A stretch of DNA of 6,274 bases from a virus (lineage: Duplodnaviria > Heunggongvirae > Uroviricota > Caudoviricetes). Shown here piece by piece: positions 1-6,274 of this stretch. The translations under genes were made by a program, and so were the position numbers. Below the pieces are notes generated by a model. It was not told the origin of the DNA. It was given only the letters and a program-made list of their open reading frames with translations, and did not search any database. Each line of letters starts with the position of its first letter. Positions within the stretch are counted from its first letter, which is position 1. The DNA lies in IMG/VR virus record IMGVR_UViG_2617270976_000005, positions 1-6,274 of that record; one strand, 5' to 3'.

Positions 1-1
1 T

Positions 2-397
2 GGTCTGAGAAATGATGCCGGAGAATTGATAGGTGTGGCGACAGCCGGTAGACCTGTTGCACGACATTTGGACGATGGATTAACGCTTGAAGTAAATCGC
101 ACATGTACCACAGGAGAACGCAACGCTAACAGCGCGCTTTATGGTGCTGTCTGGCGGGCAGCAAAGGCTATGGGTTATCAACGTTGTATTACGTACACCC
201 AGGCAGATGAATCAGGAGCATCTCTCCGCGCAGCTGGTTTTGTTCGTGTGAAAGAGCTTCCTCCAAGAAAAAGCTGGGCGGAATCAAGCGTCGCCCTGCG
301 GAGTAAACGCGATCCGGTCGGAAACGGTGGTGTTCCTCGTGTGCTCTGGGAAATCAGGAGAATGAGTACCACTGGCATTCGCATCAAAGGAGAGTGA
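2..397 (+). CDS. Hypothetical phage protein, 5'-partial (frame open to window edge; first in-window starts are TTG 26 / GTG 35)
   Basis: Open frame from position 2 to TGA 395-397, protein-like composition, stop 1 nt before the next ATG (399). No family recognised from memory. Confidence 0.5.
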   Translation, partial: GLRNDAGELIGVATAGRPVARHLDDGLTLEVNRTCTTGERNANSALYGAVWRAAKAMGYQRCITYTQADESGASLRAAGFVRVKELPPRKSWAESSVALRSKRDPVGNGGVPRVLWEIRRMSTTGIRIKGE

Positions 398-398
398 T

Positions 399-662
399 AT
401 GGCAACTTTGACAAAAAAAGAACAAGCATGGTTGAGCGAATTACAGGACGTTCTTGATCGCTGTCCATCACCGAAAAAAATTGGTTTTTACACCATTGGC
501 GATAAAAGCATTTACCTGTATGACCTGCGCCGCATGGATGAAATCATGGAGGCTCTTGATAATCGTTCGTCAATGGATTGGTGTGTTGCTGTCCATGATA
601 TGAATGCAGGGTTTGATGAAAAGATTTTGTTCCCCTCATCAGTTGAAAGCACTGCGGGTTAA
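399..662 (+). CDS. Hypothetical protein, 87 aa
   Basis: ATG 399 preceded by AAGGAG (387-392, 6-nt spacing); tightly coupled to the upstream ORF; provided ORF track. Function unknown. Confidence 0.55.
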   Translation: MATLTKKEQAWLSELQDVLDRCPSPKKIGFYTIGDKSIYLYDLRRMDEIMEALDNRSSMDWCVAVHDMNAGFDEKILFPSSVESTAG

Positions 663-672
663 GGAGTAACAC

Positions 673-978
673 ATGACCACTATTACCAAAGAACGTATTG
701 AATTGTTCATTAAAAACCCGCTTGAAAACGGGCTTACCCGTGGTGAACAAATGGAACTGGCACGGATTGCGCTGGCATCGCTGGCAGCAGAGCCAGCCGG
801 TAAATTGCATGAATACAAACCAGTGGGATATCAGCGTCTGGTCGATGAGTTAACCATGCTGGTAAAGCAGTTAACCTGGCAACTGAGGAAAGCGAAGCCA
901 GACTGCAAATTACCGGATAAGGCGATGAGTTATCTGGAGCGGAACGGACTGATAAGCGTGGAGGATATTTTACGATGA
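673..978 (+). CDS. Hypothetical protein, 101 aa
   Basis: ATG 673 preceded by AAGGAG (661-666) overlapping the upstream stop; ORF track. Function unknown. Confidence 0.6.
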   Translation: MTTITKERIELFIKNPLENGLTRGEQMELARIALASLAAEPAGKLHEYKPVGYQRLVDELTMLVKQLTWQLRKAKPDCKLPDKAMSYLERNGLISVEDILR

Positions 979-1058
979 CCTGGCCTGAAGCATTAACAAC
1001 GGTAGGAATTGCGATGGCGGTGGCGCTGGTGGTGTATTCGATTTGCCGCTGGGGATAA
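975..1058 (+). CDS. Putative 27-aa hydrophobic micro-protein (MTWPEALTTVGIAMAVALVVYSICRWG)
   Basis: ATG 975 overlaps the stop of the preceding ORF (ATGA), GGAGG 11 nt upstream, single predicted transmembrane-like segment. Below the ORF-track size cutoff; my own translation. Confidence 0.25.
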   Translation: MTWPEALTTVGIAMAVALVVYSICRWG

Positions 1059-1065
1059 AAACGGT

Positions 1066-1093
1066 TTGCGGGAAAAGGAGAGTTAAGTAGAAT
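1066..1093 (+). promoter_or_regulatory. Candidate sigma70 promoter for the hok transcript (TTGCGG, 16-nt spacer, TAGAAT)
   Basis: Hexamers read by eye at 1066-1071 and 1088-1093; would give a leader of about 170 nt before hok. Not computed. Confidence 0.2.
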
Positions 1094-1269
1094 TGCAGCG
1101 GGTGCTTGAGGCTATCTGTCTCAGGCATGAACACCAAAAGGCAGATAGAGAAAAGCCCCAGTTAACATTACGCGTCCGGCAAGACGCTTAACATTAATCT
1201 GAGGCCATATCTATGCTCTACACACGTAGGTTAGCCTCTTACGTGCCGAAAGGCAAGGAGAAGCAGGCT

Positions 1270-1425
1270 ATGAAGCAGCAAAAGGCGATGCTAATCGCCC
1301 TGATCGTCATCTGTTTAACCGTCATAGTGACGGCACTGGTAACGAGGAAAGACCTCTGCGAGGTACGAATCCGAACCGGCCAGACGGAGGTCGCTGTCTT
1401 CACAGCTTACGAACCTGAGGAGTAA
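1270..1425 (+). CDS. hokD: Hok/Gef-family type I toxin, 51 aa (membrane-depolarising peptide)
   Basis: Translation MKQQKAMLIALIVICLTVIVTALVTRKDLCEVRIRTGQTEVAVFTAYEPEE matches my recollection of HokD/RelF and is near-identical to Gef. AAGGAG 1255-1260, 9 nt before ATG 1270. An in-frame upstream ATG at 1213 would give a 70-aa form. Confidence 0.85.
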   Translation: MKQQKAMLIALIVICLTVIVTALVTRKDLCEVRIRTGQTEVAVFTAYEPEE

Positions 1426-1494
1426 GAGACCGGGCGGGGGAGAAATCCCTCGCCACCTCTGATGTGTCAGGCATCCTCAACGCACCCGCACTTA

Positions 1495-1521
1495 ACCCGC
1501 TTCGGCGGGTTTTTGTTTTTA
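1495..1521 (+). terminator. Rho-independent terminator downstream of hok
   Basis: ACCCGC / UUCG loop / GCGGGT hairpin followed by TTTTTGTTTTT. Confidence 0.7.
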
Positions 1522-1644
1522 TTTTCAACGCGTTTGAAGTTTTAGATGGTGCCGGAATAGAATCAAAAATACTTAAGTAGCGCGCAGGGAGAAGAGGGAT
1601 GGACCCCGAAGGGGAAGAGCTATTTATCTGGAAGGATTCTGAAG

Positions 1645-1818
1645 ATGAAAATCGAAGAATTACGTGAAATTTTTAGTGAAGATGGCCTCTATGCTGTGCG
1701 CGTTGAGAATGGGGGTATTACCTACACAGCGTTAATTCCTGATGATCATGTAGTGTTATCTGTTGAGGCATTCATTGAATACTTGGAAAGACTCGGTTTC
1801 AAGGTAGTTCGGGAATAA
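1645..1818 (+). CDS. Hypothetical small acidic protein, 57 aa (MKIEELREIFSEDGLYAVRVENGG...)
   Basis: ATG 1645 with AAGGA 8 nt upstream; protein-like composition; my own translation. Not in the ORF track (under cutoff). Confidence 0.4.
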   Translation: MKIEELREIFSEDGLYAVRVENGGITYTALIPDDHVVLSVEAFIEYLERLGFKVVRE

Positions 1819-1826
1819 GTTATAAT
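1797..1826 (+). promoter_or_regulatory. Candidate promoter with consensus -10 TATAAT (1821-1826) and weak -35 (TTTCAA/TTCAAG)
   Basis: Perfect TATAAT hexamer directly after the stop of the 57-aa ORF; the -35 is poor. Confidence 0.3.
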
Positions 1827-1877
1827 ACGTGAGCCAGCCTGAACAACTGGCAACCTGCAGCGCCATTGGAGATGACA

Positions 1878-2138
1878 ATGGCGCATAATTTCAAATTTCG
1901 CAATTCTGATTCTGCCTTTGCCAGCAGGCACGGGTGGCGTTCTCACGCATTCAAATATGACTGGTATCAGCACGATCCCTGTACTGAAGAACAGGCCGAA
2001 TGGCTGATTCATAACTACCGCAGACGTGGATATGAGTTTAGGAAAGCCCTCAGTGGCGCTTATTGTTCGCCAGCAGCGACTGAAATTAAGCCTGTCCGGA
2101 CGGCTGGCAATAAAAATTATTGCAGAGCCACCGGATAA
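1878..2138 (+). CDS. Uncertain ORF, 86 aa; 3' part overlaps rusA out of frame
   Basis: ATG 1878 with GGAG 6 nt upstream; the first ~50 codons look protein-like, the remainder is an alternate-frame read of the RusA-like region. May mark a mosaic junction. Confidence 0.25.
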   Translation: MAHNFKFRNSDSAFASRHGWRSHAFKYDWYQHDPCTEEQAEWLIHNYRRRGYEFRKALSGAYCSPAATEIKPVRTAGNKNYCRATG

Positions 2139-2307
2139 GCGTCGTCGTGACCTGGACAATATTCTGAAAGCACCACTGGATGCGCTGACGCACGCGGGGT
2201 TGTTAATGGACGATGAGCAGTTTGATGAAATCAATATTGTACGTGGCCAGCCAGTATCTGGTGGACGGCTGGAGATAAGAATTACAGAGGTGGGTGTGCA
2301 TGAATAA
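2026..2307 (+). CDS. rusA: RusA-family Holliday-junction resolvase homolog, apparently N-terminally truncated (93 aa versus about 120 aa)
   Basis: ...AEPPDKRRRDLDNILKAPLDALTHAGLLMDDEQ...GGRLEIRITEVG aligns with the catalytic acidic region of E. coli RusA (PDRRRRDLDN...DALTKAG...DD...GGRLELTITEMG) as I recall it. In-frame TGA at 2005-2007 blocks upstream extension, and the GTG/ATG start has no clear RBS. Confidence 0.6.
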   Translation: MDMSLGKPSVALIVRQQRLKLSLSGRLAIKIIAEPPDKRRRDLDNILKAPLDALTHAGLLMDDEQFDEINIVRGQPVSGGRLEIRITEVGVHE

Positions 2308-2989
2308 CCAGTATTTACAGTTTGTTCGTGAGCAACTCATGATTGCCACTGCAGATCTCAGTGGGTCGACAAAATGCCAGCTGGAAGCCTGGCAGGAAAA
2401 TGCCCTGTTCGATACAGGGCGTTACAGACGCAAAAAAATTCGTTACCGCGATGAGGTAACCGGAAAAATGATCACGCGGGATAATCCCCCGATCCAGGGT
2501 AAACAATCACTGGCGAAAGGCTCATCAATTGCGCTGGTCAGTCCTGTTGAGTTTGCAACATCATCGTGGCGGCGTGCCGTTCTGGAACTGGAAGAACATC
2601 AGAAGGCGTGGTTGTTGTGGTGTTATGGCGGAAACATTTGCTGGGAGCATCAGATCGCGATAACGCAGTGGGTGTGGAGTGAATTTAAAACTCAGTCCGG
2701 CTCCAGAAAAATTGCAGTGAAAACGCTGGAGCGTGTGAAGAAGTTGATCTGGCTGGCGGCACAGGATGTCAGAGGATGGGTTACCGGGTGTGAGGTCTAC
2801 CAGAGACAGGAGCTTGCCAGACTGTGTGGAGTTAAGCCTGATAACTGGAGCCATAATTATGCGAACTACTGGCGTGAGATGTGCGATATTTTTAAGCGCC
2901 TCGATAGAGAATCCTTGATTTGCTCCGTGAAAATAAGAGCGCAACAAAAAGCGACCTTTTCACGACGAGATATTGCAAAAGTCAATTAA
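2300..2989 (+). CDS. Putative late-gene antiterminator Q-like protein, 229 aa
   Basis: Call rests mainly on synteny: overlaps the rusA stop, AGAGG RBS, followed by a promoter-like element and strong hairpin terminator, then late cargo. No similarity to lambda Q itself; family assignment would need an HMM search. Confidence 0.55.
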   Translation: MNNQYLQFVREQLMIATADLSGSTKCQLEAWQENALFDTGRYRRKKIRYRDEVTGKMITRDNPPIQGKQSLAKGSSIALVSPVEFATSSWRRAVLELEEHQKAWLLWCYGGNICWEHQIAITQWVWSEFKTQSGSRKIAVKTLERVKKLIWLAAQDVRGWVTGCEVYQRQELARLCGVKPDNWSHNYANYWREMCDIFKRLDRESLICSVKIRAQQKATFSRRDIAKVN

Positions 2990-3010
2990 ATCGCGTATGT
3001 TTCGTATAAA
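2973..3010 (+). promoter_or_regulatory. Candidate late promoter (PR'-like): TTGCAA, 17-nt spacer, TATGTT; alternative -10 TATAAA at 3005-3010
   Basis: Hexamers read by eye, overlapping the 3' end of the Q-like gene, about 45 nt upstream of the hairpin terminator. Confidence 0.2.
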
Positions 3011-3050
3011 TCTGATATTTTGCCGATTTTGTACGTGATGGCAAAGTAAG

Positions 3051-3078
3051 AAAAAACCACCGCCAGGTGGTTTTTTTT
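3051..3078 (+). terminator. Rho-independent terminator (tR'-like), possibly bidirectional
   Basis: AAAAAA-CCACC-gcca-GGTGG-TTTTTTTT: short GC stem flanked by an A-tract and an 8-T tract. Confidence 0.7.
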
Positions 3079-3201
3079 ATGTCCGAAAATCGCGTCAGTA
3101 CAGTAAACGCGCTGGTGGTTGCGAATACGGGTCTTTCAGCTTGCTGGCTTTTTCGACAAGAGTTATTGGTATGTCACGTTAACCGGAAAAGGGAAAAAGA
3201 C

Positions 3202-3399
3202 ATGCTAAAACAGCAGGATATGACAGAAACCGCCAGAGTGGTGTTTAATGAATTAAGCGTTACCGACCCGGCGACAGTCAGGGAGATTGCGCAGAATACT
3301 TACCTTTCACGCGAACGCTGCCAGTTAATACTGACCCAGCTGGTTATGGCGGGTCTGGCAGACTATCAGTTCGGTTGTTACAGACGCCTTCAGTCCTGA
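3202..3399 (+). CDS. Small winged-helix-like DNA-binding protein, 65 aa (possibly PapI/FaeA-like)
   Basis: ATG 3202 with AAAGGGA upstream. The TVREIAQNTYLSRERCQLILTQLVMAGL segment has helix-turn-helix spacing that I can align by eye with PapI ([26 protein letters not shown]). The longer ORF-track version (3067) starts inside the terminator T-tract and was not used. Confidence 0.4.
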   Translation: MLKQQDMTETARVVFNELSVTDPATVREIAQNTYLSRERCQLILTQLVMAGLADYQFGCYRRLQS

Positions 3400-3412
3400 A
3401 GGCTTTTTTATT
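3386..3412 (+). terminator. Hairpin with U-tract overlapping the stop codon of the small wHTH ORF
   Basis: GCCTTCAG-tc-CTGAAGGC followed by TTTTTTATTT. Confidence 0.55.
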
Positions 3413-3550
3413 TGTGGTAAATGGGCGGCTGGTGGGTGTTAGGGGCACTCACCAGCCATCTGCTCATGCGTCCGGATCACAAGCAAACCTCAGGCCCATC
3501 TGCTTTGCGCAAAAGCAGAATGAGCCTATCAGAGACAGGCTTAATGATCC

Positions 3551-4600
3551 ATGTTTAACACTGTAAAAATATCCAGTTGTGAGTTGATCAACGCTGACTG
3601 CCTGGAATTTATCCGGTCGTTACCCGAAAATTCTGTTGACCTGATAGTCACGGACCCGCCGTACTTTAAAGTGAAGCCTGAGGGCTGGGATAACCAGTGG
3701 AAGGGCGACGATGATTACCTGAAGTGGCTGGACCAGTGTCTGGCGCAGTTCTGGCGGGTGCTGAAACCTGCCGGAAGTCTTTACCTGTTCTGTGGCCATC
3801 GCCTGGCGTCTGACATTGAAATCATGATGCGTGAACGCTTCAGTGTGCTGAACCATATTATCTGGGCGAAGCCGTCCGGACGCTGGAACGGGTGCAACAA
3901 GGAAAGCCTGAGGGCATATTTCCCCGCCACAGAGCGCATTCTGTTCGCGGAACATTATCAGGGGCCGTATCGCCCGAAAGATGCCGGGTATGAGGCGAAG
4001 GGCAGGGCACTGAAACAGCATGTGATGGCCCCGCTGATTTCTTACTTTCGTGATGCGCGCGCGGCCCTGGGGATAACGGCAAAACAGATTGCAGATGCCA
4101 CAGGAAAGAAAAACATGGTGTCGCACTGGTTCAGTGCCAGTCAGTGGCAGCTACCGAACGAAAGCGATTATCTGAAATTACAGTCGCTGTTTGCCCGGGT
4201 GGCAGAAGAGAAACATCAGCGCGGTGAACTGGAAAAGCCCCACCACCAGCTGGTGGATACGTATACGTCACTGAACCGGCAGTATGTGGAGCTGCAGAGT
4301 GAATATAAGCATCTGCGGCGGTATTTTGGTGTGACGGCGCAGGTGCCGTACACGGATGTGTGGACACATAAACCGGTGCAGTTCTATCCCGGGAAACATC
4401 CGTGCGAAAAACCGGCAGAAATGCTGCAGCAGATAATCAGCGCAAGCAGTCGTCCGGGTGACCTGGTTGCAGATTTTTTTATGGGCTCAGGTTCAACGGT
4501 AAAAGCGGCACTGGCGCTCGGGCGTCGTGCGATTGGCGTTGAACTGGAGACCGGACGTTTTGAGCAGACAGTCAGGGAAGTTCAGGATTTAATCGTTTGA
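3551..4600 (+). CDS. DNA methyltransferase, N6_N4_Mtase family (beta-class amino-MTase, likely N6-adenine), 349 aa; no adjacent endonuclease
   Basis: N-terminal catalytic motif IV LIVTDPPYF (nt 3653-3664) and C-terminal AdoMet motif I DFFMGSGST, in beta-class order, with a central HTH-like insert (ITAKQIADATGKKNMVSHWF). An in-frame TGA at 3545-3547 fixes the start at ATG 3551; the RBS is weak. Confidence 0.9.
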   Translation: MFNTVKISSCELINADCLEFIRSLPENSVDLIVTDPPYFKVKPEGWDNQWKGDDDYLKWLDQCLAQFWRVLKPAGSLYLFCGHRLASDIEIMMRERFSVLNHIIWAKPSGRWNGCNKESLRAYFPATERILFAEHYQGPYRPKDAGYEAKGRALKQHVMAPLISYFRDARAALGITAKQIADATGKKNMVSHWFSASQWQLPNESDYLKLQSLFARVAEEKHQRGELEKPHHQLVDTYTSLNRQYVELQSEYKHLRRYFGVTAQVPYTDVWTHKPVQFYPGKHPCEKPAEMLQQIISASSRPGDLVADFFMGSGSTVKAALALGRRAIGVELETGRFEQTVREVQDLIV

Positions 4601-4611
4601 AACGGATGAGA

Positions 4612-4641
4612 TTGCAGAATTAATTACGCACCATTATTATT
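4612..4641 (+). promoter_or_regulatory. Candidate promoter for the tRNA cluster (TTGCAG, 17-nt spacer, TATTAT)
   Basis: Hexamers at 4612-4617 and 4635-4640 place a start site about 2 nt before the first tRNA. Confidence 0.35.
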
Positions 4642-4649
4642 CTGCTTCC

Positions 4650-4725
4650 GGCCCTTTAGCTCAGTGGTGAGAGCGAGCGACTCATAATCGCCAGGTCGCT
4701 GGTTCAAATCCAGCAAGGGCCACCA
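4650..4725 (+). tRNA. tRNA with CAU anticodon, most likely tRNA-Ile2 (lysidine type, ileX/ileZ-like); tRNA-Met not excluded
   Basis: Manual cloverleaf: acceptor GGCCCTT/AAGGGCC, D-arm GCTC/GAGC, anticodon loop CUCAUAA, T-loop TTCAAAT, encoded CCA. Close to E. coli ileX as I recall it. Confidence 0.85.
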
Positions 4726-4732
4726 TCACAAA

Positions 4733-4812
4733 CCGCCATTAGCTTATCAGGAAGAGCAGACGACACGATAACAGGGTTGTTGGTGCGGGGGCGGGTCCCC
4801 GATGGCGGTCCA
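4733..4812 (+). pseudogene. Degenerate tRNA-like relic between the two tRNAs
   Basis: Perfect 7-bp acceptor stem CCGCCAT/ATGGCGG, then the same TA + GCT(T) start of the D-arm as the flanking tRNAs, a discriminator and CCA; but no foldable anticodon arm and a non-canonical 6-nt T-loop (GCGGGT). Confidence 0.3.
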
Positions 4813-4825
4813 TTATCGGTATTCA

Positions 4826-4902
4826 GCGTTGTTAGCTCAGCCGGACAGAGCAATTGCCTTCTAAGCAATCGGTCACTGGTTCGAATCCAGTACAGCGCGC
4901 CA
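4826..4902 (+). tRNA. tRNA-Arg, anticodon UCU (reads AGA, and AGG by wobble)
   Basis: Manual cloverleaf: acceptor GCGTTGT/ACAGCGC (one G-U pair), D-arm GCTC/GAGC, anticodon stem ATTGC/GCAAT with loop CUUCUAA, T-loop TTCGAAT, encoded CCA. Confidence 0.9.
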
Positions 4903-5009
4903 TATTCATTCTTCCAGATTCCTTTCGGCAGAGCCTTATACTGAAATATACCTGGCTCAGGATATTGTTGAAAATATTATATGTTTGTCAAAAATAAAAG
5001 TTCTGTTAA

Positions 5010-5366
5010 GTGTTGATTGAGTGTTTGTTATACGGTCTAATGGTTTTTTCAGCATTAAATATTTATCATTCATATGGTGTGGGTAGAGTGAATATTGATG
5101 AGGCGTCGGGGTGTTTCATCCTTAGGCAGCGTATTGATATAGTCAATGCAGAACGAGCAAAGGCCTTCAGCCGTTTGACAGTTTTGTTCTGTACTCCTGA
5201 TCGTCTTTCGGGAAGAGACGTTATTATTCTGAATAGTGATGCTATACAGAGGGTTTGCGATGAGTTCATGGTGGCTAATTCAGAATTATTTGCTCTTGTT
5301 CAGGAGTACAACAGAATAGCCAGGACCTGTGGTATGGATGAACTTCGGATTACTCATCTGGGGTAG
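5010..5366 (+). CDS. Hypothetical protein in an AT-rich cargo region, 108-118 aa depending on start (GTG 5010 or ATG 5040)
   Basis: ORF track. Composition is more protein-like than the overlapping antisense frame, but neither start has a convincing RBS. No family recognised. Confidence 0.3.
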   Translation: MLIECLLYGLMVFSALNIYHSYGVGRVNIDEASGCFILRQRIDIVNAERAKAFSRLTVLFCTPDRLSGRDVIILNSDAIQRVCDEFMVANSELFALVQEYNRIARTCGMDELRITHLG

Positions 5367-5446
5367 ATACATATCTGGATTATCACCGGTTACGGTAAAA
5401 AGTGATTGCTTACTGTTTTTGTGAATGGCATTGCAGCAGCCGGATA

Positions 5447-5533
5447 ATGTCAGTGCTGGCTGACGGTGTGCTGGTGGCGGGTGTGGTGGTTGCTGCTTTC
5501 CCGTTGCTGAAAAAGAAAACGCTAGACTGTTAG
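5447..5533 (+). CDS. Speculative 28-aa hydrophobic peptide (MSVLADGVLVAGVVVAAFPLLKKKTLDC)
   Basis: My own translation; single hydrophobic stretch with C-terminal KKK. Weak RBS; an in-frame GTG at 5402 would give 44 aa. May be a chance ORF in GT-rich sequence. Confidence 0.15.
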   Translation: MSVLADGVLVAGVVVAAFPLLKKKTLDC

Positions 5534-5757
5534 CCGGGTATCAGTTAGCGGGAGAAATTTTTAAATACTTCACAATTCAGGCGGTTGACTGTTGTCTGGT
5601 TTGCGGGGAGTTTGTTAAAAGAAACTGGCATGGTGAATCCCCCTGTGCGGAGGGGCAATCAGCGAGTAGGTATATGGGATAATCGCGGATTCAGGTGCTG
5701 GTACTGAATTCACCGGGAGGCACCCGGCACCATGCAATGGCACATAGCGCCACTCTC

Positions 5758-5788
5758 CAGCCCCTCTCCGGAGGGGCTGTTTATATTG
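5758..5788 (+). terminator. Strong rho-independent terminator
   Basis: Perfect 9-bp GC-rich stem CAGCCCCTC / tccg / GAGGGGCTG followed by TTTATATTGATTTT. Confidence 0.6.
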
Positions 5789-5810
5789 ATTTTGTCAGAT
5801 GTGAGTAAAC

Positions 5811-5844
5811 TCCTTATGGACTTTGTTGTTTTAGTCCATAAGGA
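5811..5844. repeat. Perfect 12-bp inverted repeat with 10-nt spacer (TCCTTATGGACT-n10-AGTCCATAAGGA)
   Basis: Read directly from the sequence; no U-tract follows on either strand, so more likely an operator or RNA structure than a terminator. Confidence 0.6.
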
Positions 5845-5896
5845 CATATTTGCAGAGTGCAACGGTTATTAAAGCATTCATTCAATACGTTATCTG

Positions 5897-6274
5897 GGTG
5901 ATGCTGCCAACTTACTGATTTAGTGTATGATGGTGTTTTTGAGGTGCTCCAGTGGCTTCTGTTTCTATCAGCTGTCCCTCCTGTTCAGCTACTGACGGGG
6001 TGGTGCGTAACGGCAAAAGCACCGCCGGACATCAGCGCTATCTCTGCTCTCACTGCCGTAAAACATGGCAACTGCAGTTCACTTACACCGCTTCTCAACC
6101 CGGTACGCACCAGAAAATCATTGATATGGCCATGAATGGCGTTGGATGCCGGGCAACAGCCCGCATTATGGGCGTTGGCCTCAACACGATTTTACGTCAC
6201 TTAAAAAACTCAGGCCGCAGTCGGTAACCTCGCGCATACAGCCGGGCAGTGACGTCATCGTCTGCGCGGAAATG
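5897..6274 (+). mobile_element. IS1 insertion sequence, left end and first 378 bp (continues past the window)
   Basis: Left terminal inverted repeat GGTGATGCTGCCAACTTACTGAT at 5897-5919, and insA at the expected offset (IS1 nt 56). Confidence 0.95.
5952..6227 (+). CDS. insA: IS1 InsA (transposition repressor / N-terminal part of the InsAB' transposase), 91 aa
   Basis: Translation [43 protein letters not shown]...LKNSGRSR matches IS1 InsA as I recall it. Confidence 0.95.

Follow-up and report, generated by a model that had tools for sequence, protein, structure and literature searches.

What is the hairpin-rich tract that abuts an IS1 element near the end of a 6,274-nt stretch of Caudoviricetes DNA (positions 1 to 6,274 of IMG/VR record IMGVR_UViG_2617270976_000005; the whole stretch is referred to below as the window)? 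A first-pass annotation, made from the sequence alone, had proposed three readings: a structured small RNA (sRNA), the 3' untranslated region (UTR) of an upstream cargo gene, or the operator of a gene displaced by IS1. Only the first was borne out. Positions 5592-5794 are almost certainly one ordinary copy of the gene for STnc100, an sRNA family held in Rfam as RF02076, and the sequence that follows belongs to the 3' end of iraM, a gene truncated here by IS1.

STnc100 in the late region of lambdoid prophages

The hairpins, the palindrome, the IS1 boundary and the gap in open reading frames (ORFs) described in the first-pass annotation were all recovered. A repeat finder returned CCCCTGTGCGGAGGGGC (5640-5656) and CCCCTCTCCGGAGGGGC (5761-5777) as a direct repeat with 88% identity, 121 nt apart, as well as an inverted repeat of 9 bp at 5758-5766/5771-5779, and the small CCGGG/CCCGG hairpin was located at 5713-5727. 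No ORF of at least 60 aa crosses 5370-5896, a stretch that still holds two coding features, namely a 43-aa DUF3927 gene and, on the minus strand, the last 27 codons of iraM.

In a scan of the whole window against the Rfam covariance models, an analysis that the first-pass annotation had itself suggested, the tract gave a full-length match to RF02076 ('Gammaproteobacterial sRNA STnc100') on the plus strand at 5599-5788. The match covered model positions 1-206 of 206, with 132.4 bits and an E-value of 6.8e-30. Because the match is full-length and far exceeds the curated gathering score of 47 bits, the tract is regarded as a bona fide member of the family; the identical tract in O104:H4 str. 2011C-3493 gave an equal score. 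All three GC-rich hairpins belong to STnc100, as its helices P1 and P3 and its terminator. The likeness of the first and last of these, which had been taken for a common core, was found to hold for E. coli-type copies and to fail in other genera, where the terminator sequence is unrelated.

The window copy has the helices, the invariant core, the prophage position and the 3' terminator of the family. Apart from an interrupted U-tract after the terminator, no substantive difference was seen in the element itself; its convergent neighbour is iraM and not an anti-sRNA of the AsxR/AgvB type, and its transcript probably starts about 29 nt inside the 5' boundary of the Rfam model. Members of this family are transcribed and already catalogued, and the STnc100 tract described here is accordingly a known element, ordinary for an E. 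coli prophage. In the same Rfam scan, neither riboswitch and ribozyme families nor AsxR/AgvB (RF02703, RF02702) matched the window at E-values up to 1.

The structure of the hairpin tract is far beyond chance, as judged from the Rfam E-value of 6.8e-30 and from compensatory base changes across the family. The view that it represents chance GC-rich repeats, a generic extragenic palindrome or a hypothetical protein encoded on the minus strand is given almost no credence, even though the two GC hairpins do resemble each other and antisense coding sequences (CDSs) have been annotated. The Prokaryotic Genome Annotation Pipeline (PGAP) placed a partial 'hypothetical protein' pseudo-CDS antisense to STnc100 in O104:H4 (locus L001 6249-6374, corresponding to window 5618-5743, minus strand), and a 132-aa antisense CDS lies over PasD1, a related sRNA gene, in enteropathogenic E. 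coli (EPEC) strain E2348/69 (locus L235 2301-2699). Since changes within the family preserve pairs and not codons, these calls are probably spurious; in the window the antisense frame comprises only 42 aa, and PGAP flags it as incomplete.

The first-pass annotation had also allowed that the hairpins might belong to a ubiquitous extragenic palindrome family. The element is instead strictly tied to a single position in the late region of lambdoid prophages, and its fixed position and polarity therefore set it apart from generic extragenic palindromes. Copies do not behave as repetitive extragenic palindromes (REPs), although no dedicated scan with a REP consensus was made.

The 527-nt tract 5370-5896 occurs with 99.6% identity in more than 1000 complete E. 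coli genomes, and parts of it were found in 2859 of 5426 complete genomes of this species, at up to 12 places in each. A 22-nt core, CACCGGGAGGCACCCGGCACCA (5711-5732), was present in 110 stretches from species-representative genomes, the genera including Kosakonia, Enterobacter, Klebsiella, Citrobacter, Raoultella, Buttiauxella, Pantoea, Erwinia and others, and also in at least 120 viral contigs.

The polarity of STnc100 was uniform across 230 loci. The Q gene was always upstream and shared the strand of STnc100 in 83 of 86 hits. Genes for lysis and for the SASA esterase were almost always found downstream on that strand, and in all 16 loci with iraM this gene lay downstream in the opposite orientation. 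The genes of O104:H4 str. 2011C-3493 are arranged as Q, methylase, three tRNAs, DUF3927, STnc100, iraM (minus strand), SASA esterase, holin and lysozyme; in the IS1-free allele the region downstream of STnc100 thus runs on into the esterase, holin and lysozyme genes. The rest of the window is likewise a late-regulatory region of a lambdoid prophage, with hok/sok, Q (PF06323), a DNA methylase (PF01555) and two tRNA genes. STnc100 occupies the 'moron' slot of such prophages, 3' of Q, the methylase and the tRNAs and 5' of the expected lysis genes, and this slot is the site of EcOnc27/sRNA103 in Stx2 phages.

Two further features of its arrangement were noted. STnc100 often stands directly 3' of phage tRNA genes, and in some phages two or three complete units follow one another at intervals of 260-480 nt, as in locus L233 (3561-3754 and 4030-4218) and likewise in loci L126, L143, L157, L166 and L177. 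The tandem units differ in their pseudoknot strands and inserts.

Convergent sRNA pairs 3' of PR' at the moron site were described in eight Sakai prophages (Tree et al. 2014, PMC4104026), and EcOnc27 (= sRNA103) is the Hfq-bound forward RNA of such a convergent pair (PMC4104026, PMC7873438, PMC12711010). The EcOnc27/sRNA103 copy downstream of stx2B in Sp5 and 933W belongs to the same family as the window copy, the 933W copy scoring 207.7 bits, and shares with it the slot between the tRNAs or moron and the lysis genes, the positions of the promoter hexamers and the invariant blocks. Identity to the window copy is about 79-87% over the common 230 nt, and the differences lie in the pseudoknot strands, the insert, the linker and the terminator. 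In 933W, STnc100 starts 75 nt after stx2B and is followed immediately by the convergent AsxR, whereas the window lacks AsxR; the anti-sRNAs AsxR and AgvB occupy the same type of locus, and their place is taken here by the 3' end of iraM.

The sRNAs PasD1 and PasD2 of EPEC E2348/69 have the upstream DUF3927 gene, the promoter layout and the first bases, GCAUGGUGAAUCC, in common with the window. At 172-173 nt, with a terminator at the end, they are also similar in size to the RNA expected here, and the text of a Storz-laboratory preprint argues for a common ancestor of PasD and STnc100. The PasD copies score only 37.7 and 41.4 bits, under the Rfam threshold of 47, and their P1 and P3 are degenerate, whereas both helices are intact in the window. 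The window copy is not PasD.

Fold of the 5' domain

The fold was assessed on 111 copies with less than 88% mutual identity, aligned with MAFFT, an alignment that was not fitted to any structure. As this set had been chosen on the P3 core, P3 could not be judged from it, and a second collection of 182 unique copies was anchored on the 5' block only.

The structured 5' domain (5628-5735, plus strand) is a four-way junction supported by compensatory changes. It is closed by helix H0 (5628-5635 with 5728-5735), which was paired in 91% of cases across the 111 copies and showed compensatory exchanges of the GC/AU and UA/CG type. Helix P1, the first hairpin of the first-pass annotation (5639-5654), is formed by the pairs 5639-5654, 5640-5653, 5641-5652 and 5642-5650; A5651 is bulged, and the 7-nt loop, CUNNGCG, is conserved. 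The helix was 99.8% paired, with changes on both sides at three of the four pairs. The register of P1 obtained by minimum free energy fits worse, with 84% pairing and both-side changes at one of five pairs. The middle hairpin M (5687-5711; 5687-5694 with 5704-5711) was 86% paired over its outer six pairs, which carry many compensatory changes. Helix P3, the small hairpin noted earlier (5713-5727, CCGGG-AGGCA-CCCGG), is stacked directly on H0.

Over the whole fold, 77.8% of the alignment cells were paired, compared with 42-48% when partners were slid against each other, and the covariation score was reached by none of 500 shuffles. RNAalifold, applied to the gappy 111-sequence MAFFT alignment, returned only the invariant P3.

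The exact 22-nt core 5711-5732 was kept in 137 of the 182 unique copies of the 5'-anchored collection, and most of the remaining copies had a single substitution, mainly of C by U, which would leave a G.U pair in place. Because so many copies selected without regard to P3 retain the core unchanged, P3 and the junction are constrained in sequence and not in pairing alone. Across genera, hardly any variation was seen in P3 and its loop, in the GAAU junction or in the P1 loop CUNNGCG, although the flanks are mosaic.

A pseudoknot of the H type joins two further strands of the domain. Its 5' strand, AUCAGCG (5658-5664), lies just 3' of P1, and its 3' strand, UGCUGGU (5696-5702), lies inside the loop of M, both on the plus strand. 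At least five contiguous complementary bases were present at this position in 164 of 173 unique copies, in 88 distinct duplex sequences. The longest complementary run averaged 6.08 for a strand with its own partner and 4.21 ± 0.09 with swapped partners, and the corresponding duplex energies were -10.6 and -7.7 ± 0.2 kcal/mol. Throughout the family the loop strand is flush with the 3' side of the M loop, with 1-2 nt left on the 5' side; as pseudoknot geometry is read here, such flush 3' placement would allow a short linker to cross the deep groove of a 6-7-bp helix.

A column-wise count on the MAFFT alignment gave only 38% paired cells for the pseudoknot, as that alignment does not bring the variable strands into register. 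The case for the pseudoknot therefore depends on the alignment-free comparison of own with swapped partners, and on these comparative grounds a covarying pseudoknot between 5658-5664 and 5696-5702 can be regarded as established. No description of it was found in the searchable papers, whose text contained no more than the name of the family and one primer sequence, a scope outside which the consensus-structure figures of the Storz-laboratory preprint lie.

The conservation of this domain bears on a different view of the RNA, according to which the invariant pseudoknotted four-way junction (5628-5735) would be the functional part, either as a protein- or ligand-binding RNA or as a tRNA-like mimic. 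The near-invariance of P3 with its loop, of the GAAU junction and of the P1 loop across genera amid mosaic flanks is what such a module would lead one to expect, and so are helices that vary by compensatory changes only and a pseudoknot maintained through 88 sequences with its loop strand flush against the 3' side of the M loop. The arms are moreover cloverleaf-like in order and length, the closing helix having 8 bp and being followed by a 4-bp arm, a long arm and, stacked on the closing helix, a 5-bp arm. In addition, STnc100 frequently comes right after phage tRNA genes.

However, ARAGORN called only the two true tRNAs of the window, the Rfam tRNA model gave no hit at 5628-5735, and the P3 loop has 5 nt compared with the 7-nt T-loop of tRNA. 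The lack of matches to riboswitch and ribozyme families at E-values up to 1 also counts against a binding module, as does the lack of a conserved expression platform, complementarity between P1 and the terminator being limited to E. coli-type copies. PasD, with degenerate P1 and P3, is still an abundant Hfq-dependent sRNA, and no binding partner is known. A binding module is accordingly judged unlikely, though it deserves some weight; it may also coexist with pairing through a seed, in which case the 3' linker would be a secondary, swappable seed.

A related candidate, a riboswitch or antiterminator built from the two like hairpins, was rejected, their similarity and complementarity being confined to E. 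coli-type copies. In such copies an 8-bp pairing is possible between the 3' strand of P1, GGAGGGGC (5649-5656), and the terminator's 5' strand, GCCCCUCU (5760-5767); the terminators of other genera are unrelated, and this alternative pairing is absent there.

Predicted transcription and proposed mode of action

A sigma-70 promoter is predicted on the plus strand at 5592-5621, with a -35 hexamer TTGTCT (5592-5597), a TG (5613-5614) and a -10 hexamer TAAAAG (5616-5621). The predicted spacer is 18 nt long and ends in the TG, and the two hexamers align with TTGACT/TAAAAA of PasD1/2 and with TTGCCT/TAAAAA of 933W. In 157 unique upstream sequences that are otherwise dissimilar, a T-A-A-n-T-T is common at -14 to -9, relative to the G of GGTGAA, and a T-rich -35 element at -38 to -33. 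This upstream signal predicts a start about 2 nt before GGTGAA.

For PasD1, a 5' end estimated from RNA-seq has been given at NC_011601.1 position 1060260 (PMC8550237), and it aligns with G5628, the first base of H0. By analogy, the window RNA would start at about G5628 from its own sigma-70 promoter, stop at the terminator and have a length of about 160 nt, and it would be made in the lysogen.

Just upstream of the predicted -35, the sequence TCACAATTCAGGCGGTTGAC (5569-5590) is almost identical in the window and in 933W despite differing flanks. A second TTGAC(T/A) motif lies within it, at a spacing that does not match the -10, and the sequence could be a regulator site or a second promoter.

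At the other end of the element, the second hairpin of the first-pass annotation (5758-5794, plus strand) has the features of an intrinsic (Rho-independent) terminator, and termination is predicted there. The stem (5758-5779) has 9 bp, seven of them GC pairs, and a 4-nt loop, and is followed by the U-tract UUUAUAUUGAUUUUG; with the tail TTTATATTGA it obtained a terminator-like score in the scan. Folding of the hairpin gave -20.3 kcal/mol (z -3.8). Most copies have a hairpin and a T-run at this place, the sequence differing between them.

Expression of the family has been recorded by others. Eleven STnc100 copies had RNA-seq reads in uninduced cultures of EDL933, and one of them was confirmed by Northern blotting (PMC5331693). 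Published primers for reverse transcription quantitative PCR of STnc100, with a stated amplicon of 93 nt (PMC12370729), match the window without mismatch at 5629-5648 and 5702-5721, so that the 93-nt amplicon corresponds to 5629-5721. Judged from this sequence match, the primers appear to provide direct support for expression of this sequence type.

These observations also bear on the possibility that the tract is not an independent gene. It could instead be a cis element of the Q-dependent late transcript or of a cargo mRNA, acting as a 3' UTR or in processing or stability, and the short RNA would then be a mere processing by-product. STnc100 always runs with the late operon and lies between Q and the lysis genes; in Stx2 phages it starts 75 nt after stx2B, and its terminator would, in line with established lambda biology, be read through by Q-modified polymerase. 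Such a role is considered improbable. The promoter-like signal keeps a fixed distance from the structured domain in upstream sequences that are otherwise unrelated, and the estimated 5' end of PasD falls exactly on the first base of the closing helix. The existence of two or three complete tandem units in some phages, and the expression of copies in uninduced cultures (PMC5331693), likewise speak for a gene of its own.

The more specific proposal of the first-pass annotation, the 3' UTR of a cargo gene, was rejected with respect to the supposed gene as well. The 118-aa ORF at 5010-5366 has no Pfam or NCBIfam match; its stretch occurs in 1186 genomes and was left unannotated by PGAP in the 100%-identical genomes among those listed. 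It may not be a gene. In addition, the separate DUF3927 gene sits between this ORF and the RNA, and the RNA has its own conserved promoter-like signal.

As to its action, the RNA would work like EcOnc27/sRNA103 of Stx2 phages and PasD of EPEC, as an Hfq-associated regulator acting in trans. It would base-pair with mRNAs or with other sRNAs, using the variable stretch immediately 5' of the terminator, and the invariant pseudoknotted 5' domain would be a stabilising or partner-binding module that protects or presents the seed. EcOnc27 was recovered by Hfq cross-linking and detected on Northern blots (PMC4104026, PMC7873438). PasD1/2 show Hfq-dependent stability and many partners in RIL-seq, a method that ligates and sequences interacting RNAs, and their seed UGUGAG and RIL-seq chimeras map just 5' of the terminator (PMC8550237). 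Because the PasD seed lies in the equivalent stretch, the mostly single-stranded linker AAUGGCACAUAGCGCCACUCUC (5736-5757, plus strand), which varies among family members, is the candidate seed of the window copy. Hfq-dependent base pairing would extend to this copy by analogy with its relatives, and a mechanism of their kind is given a little less than an even chance.

Several points weigh against this account of an expressed, base-pairing sRNA. The -10 hexamer TAAAAG is imperfect, and a consensus scan made no promoter call, because the last base of the -10 is G; a transcript at the window locus itself is argued from relatives. An interrupted U-tract (UUUAUAUUG) follows the terminator, and the bases ahead of the hairpin are not rich in U, features that together would make a weaker Hfq module than that of the 933W copy. 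The PasD seed UGUGAG is absent from the predicted transcript (5628-5794). No STnc100 copy has a validated target, and a review gives the function of the family as unknown (PMC9029176); the effects of sRNA103 on fimZ and espA were indirect or only predicted (PMC7873438). Finally, the near-invariant P3 and junction would seem to exceed what a scaffold for a seed apparently needs, and a 5' domain so constant in sequence points to a specific partner.

The explanation as a whole, namely a copy of STnc100 that would be transcribed from its own promoter, next to an iraM cut by IS1, is considered very probable, the mechanism keeping the lower odds given above.

The iraM remnant and the surrounding genes

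The perfect palindrome downstream of the terminator consists of two 12-nt arms (5811-5822 and 5833-5844) that are 100% complementary and separated by a 10-nt spacer. Folded on the minus strand, it gave -18.8 kcal/mol (z -5.55), and none of 200 shuffles was as good. The comparison with an IS1-free allele that had been proposed in the first-pass annotation placed the end of homology at 5896 and identified the displaced gene as iraM, which in that allele occupies the minus strand from window position 5814 onwards. The palindrome (5811-5844, minus strand) therefore covers the last ten codons of iraM, the PYGLKQQSP region, together with its stop codon.

The remnant of iraM (5814-5896, minus strand) comprises the last 27 codons and the stop and is truncated by IS1. 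Translation of the minus strand at 5814-5897 gives PDNVLNECFNNRCTLQICPYGLKQQSP*, which from D86 on is identical to the C-terminus of the intact 111-aa protein of O104:H4; the first residue of the remnant belongs to a partial codon that the first IS1 base completes. The intact O104:H4 protein scored 162 bits against the NCBIfam model IraM (NF007393; cut-off 121). IS1 removed the other 84 codons of the gene and its promoter, and iraM in the window is a truncated pseudogene.

The left end of IS1 lies at 5897-6274 (plus strand). It begins with GGTGATGCTGCC..., 53 bp after the last base of the palindrome, and carries the inverted repeat GGTGATGCTGCCAACTTACTG... and the start of insA before it runs off the window; this stretch is annotated as an IS1 family transposase in thousands of records.

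An inverted repeat of 12 bp without mismatch is improbable by chance in 6 kb, and an operator of a gene displaced by IS1 had been among the proposals of the first-pass annotation. A role as a protein-binding operator or regulatory site of that gene is very improbable, and this candidate was rejected. The site lies inside the 3' coding end of the convergent iraM and across its stop codon, far from any promoter. A 64-nt segment around it occurs in 1365 E. coli genomes, identically in 692, and lies under annotated iraM in every record among those listed. In the O104:H4 allele, a synonymous GGG in place of GGA keeps a G.U pair on the iraM RNA strand and breaks the symmetry of the DNA.

The repeat is also absent from iraM of K-12 and from alleles of 73% and 37% identity; K-12 and the diverged alleles end four codons earlier or differently. 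IraM is an anti-adapter that protects RpoS, known from K-12 (b1160) and from prophage alleles. The window remnant is the exact C-terminus of the prophage allele, which is four codons longer than K-12 IraM, and these extra codons, missing in K-12, belong to the palindrome. The palindrome is not part of the sRNA and not an operator. Its distribution among alleles marks it as a lineage-specific feature of one iraM allele, where it could plausibly be, at most, a 3' stem-loop of the iraM mRNA.

A search of complete E. coli genomes for the exact iraM::IS1 junction gave no instance in the orientation of the window. Only three genomes, including NZ_CP103592.1 (ST131 strain 4224), covered the query; in them iraM and IS1 are adjacent, matching with 99.6-100% identity in two or three pieces, and such split matches suggest that an IS1 lies at this site or close to it in a different orientation or arrangement. 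In the viral contig of locus L161, whose IraM has 73% identity, about 15 nt separate the iraM stop codon from the terminator hairpin of STnc100, read as its reverse complement. A single hairpin is thus found between the convergent STnc100 and iraM there, and the 12-bp palindrome is not present.

Upstream of STnc100, the window carries at 5402-5533 (plus strand) a gene for a small hydrophobic protein of 43 aa, which matches DUF3927 (Pfam PF13064, E 2.3e-25). It is the immediate upstream neighbour of STnc100 or PasD in the window, in O104:H4 (L001 6033-6164) and at both PasD loci of E2348/69 (L235 2062-2220; L236 1959-2117), and its linkage to the sRNA is conserved.

Two tRNA genes, 100 nt apart, were found at 4650-4902, one with a CAT anticodon and the other Arg-TCT. 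The former is called Met by ARAGORN, and the homologous gene of O104:H4 is annotated as tRNA-Ile; the otherwise near-identical O104:H4 prophage has three tRNAs (Ile, Arg, Arg; L001 5284-5533). The Q gene (PF06323) lies in the 2294-3080 region and is followed about 60 nt later by a strong hairpin and a T-run, AAAAAACCACCGCCAGGTGGTTTTTTTT (about 3052-3079). Weak, sub-threshold Rfam hits to isrK and STnc370 were obtained there, and by analogy the stretch looks like a short PR'-tR' transcript such as lambda 6S RNA, StxS or IsrK. A hok/sok type I toxin-antitoxin module occupies 1100-1425, where the Rfam match to sok (1100-1275, 117 bits compared with a threshold of 59) overlaps the start of a Hok-like ORF (MKQQKAMLIALIVICLTVIV...) that ends at 1425.

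For the window itself these results carry little weight, as it holds one of thousands of near-identical catalogued sRNA copies next to the debris of an IS1-disrupted iraM. The present analysis adds a corrected register for P1, the covarying pseudoknot, a likely transcription start at the first base of the closing helix and the assignment of the palindrome to the 3' end of iraM. For the family the implications are wider. According to a review, STnc100 ranks among the most abundant sRNA families in bacterial genomes, with no function listed (PMC9029176). It sits beside Shiga toxin genes, and in one study no other genomic feature predicted haemolytic uraemic syndrome as strongly as variation within the Stx2-phage copy (PMC12711010). 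The refined fold offers concrete mutations with which the function of the RNA can be probed. If the binding function considered above were true, the 5' domain would be a dedicated binding module or tRNA-like mimic spread by lambdoid phages across the Enterobacteriaceae.

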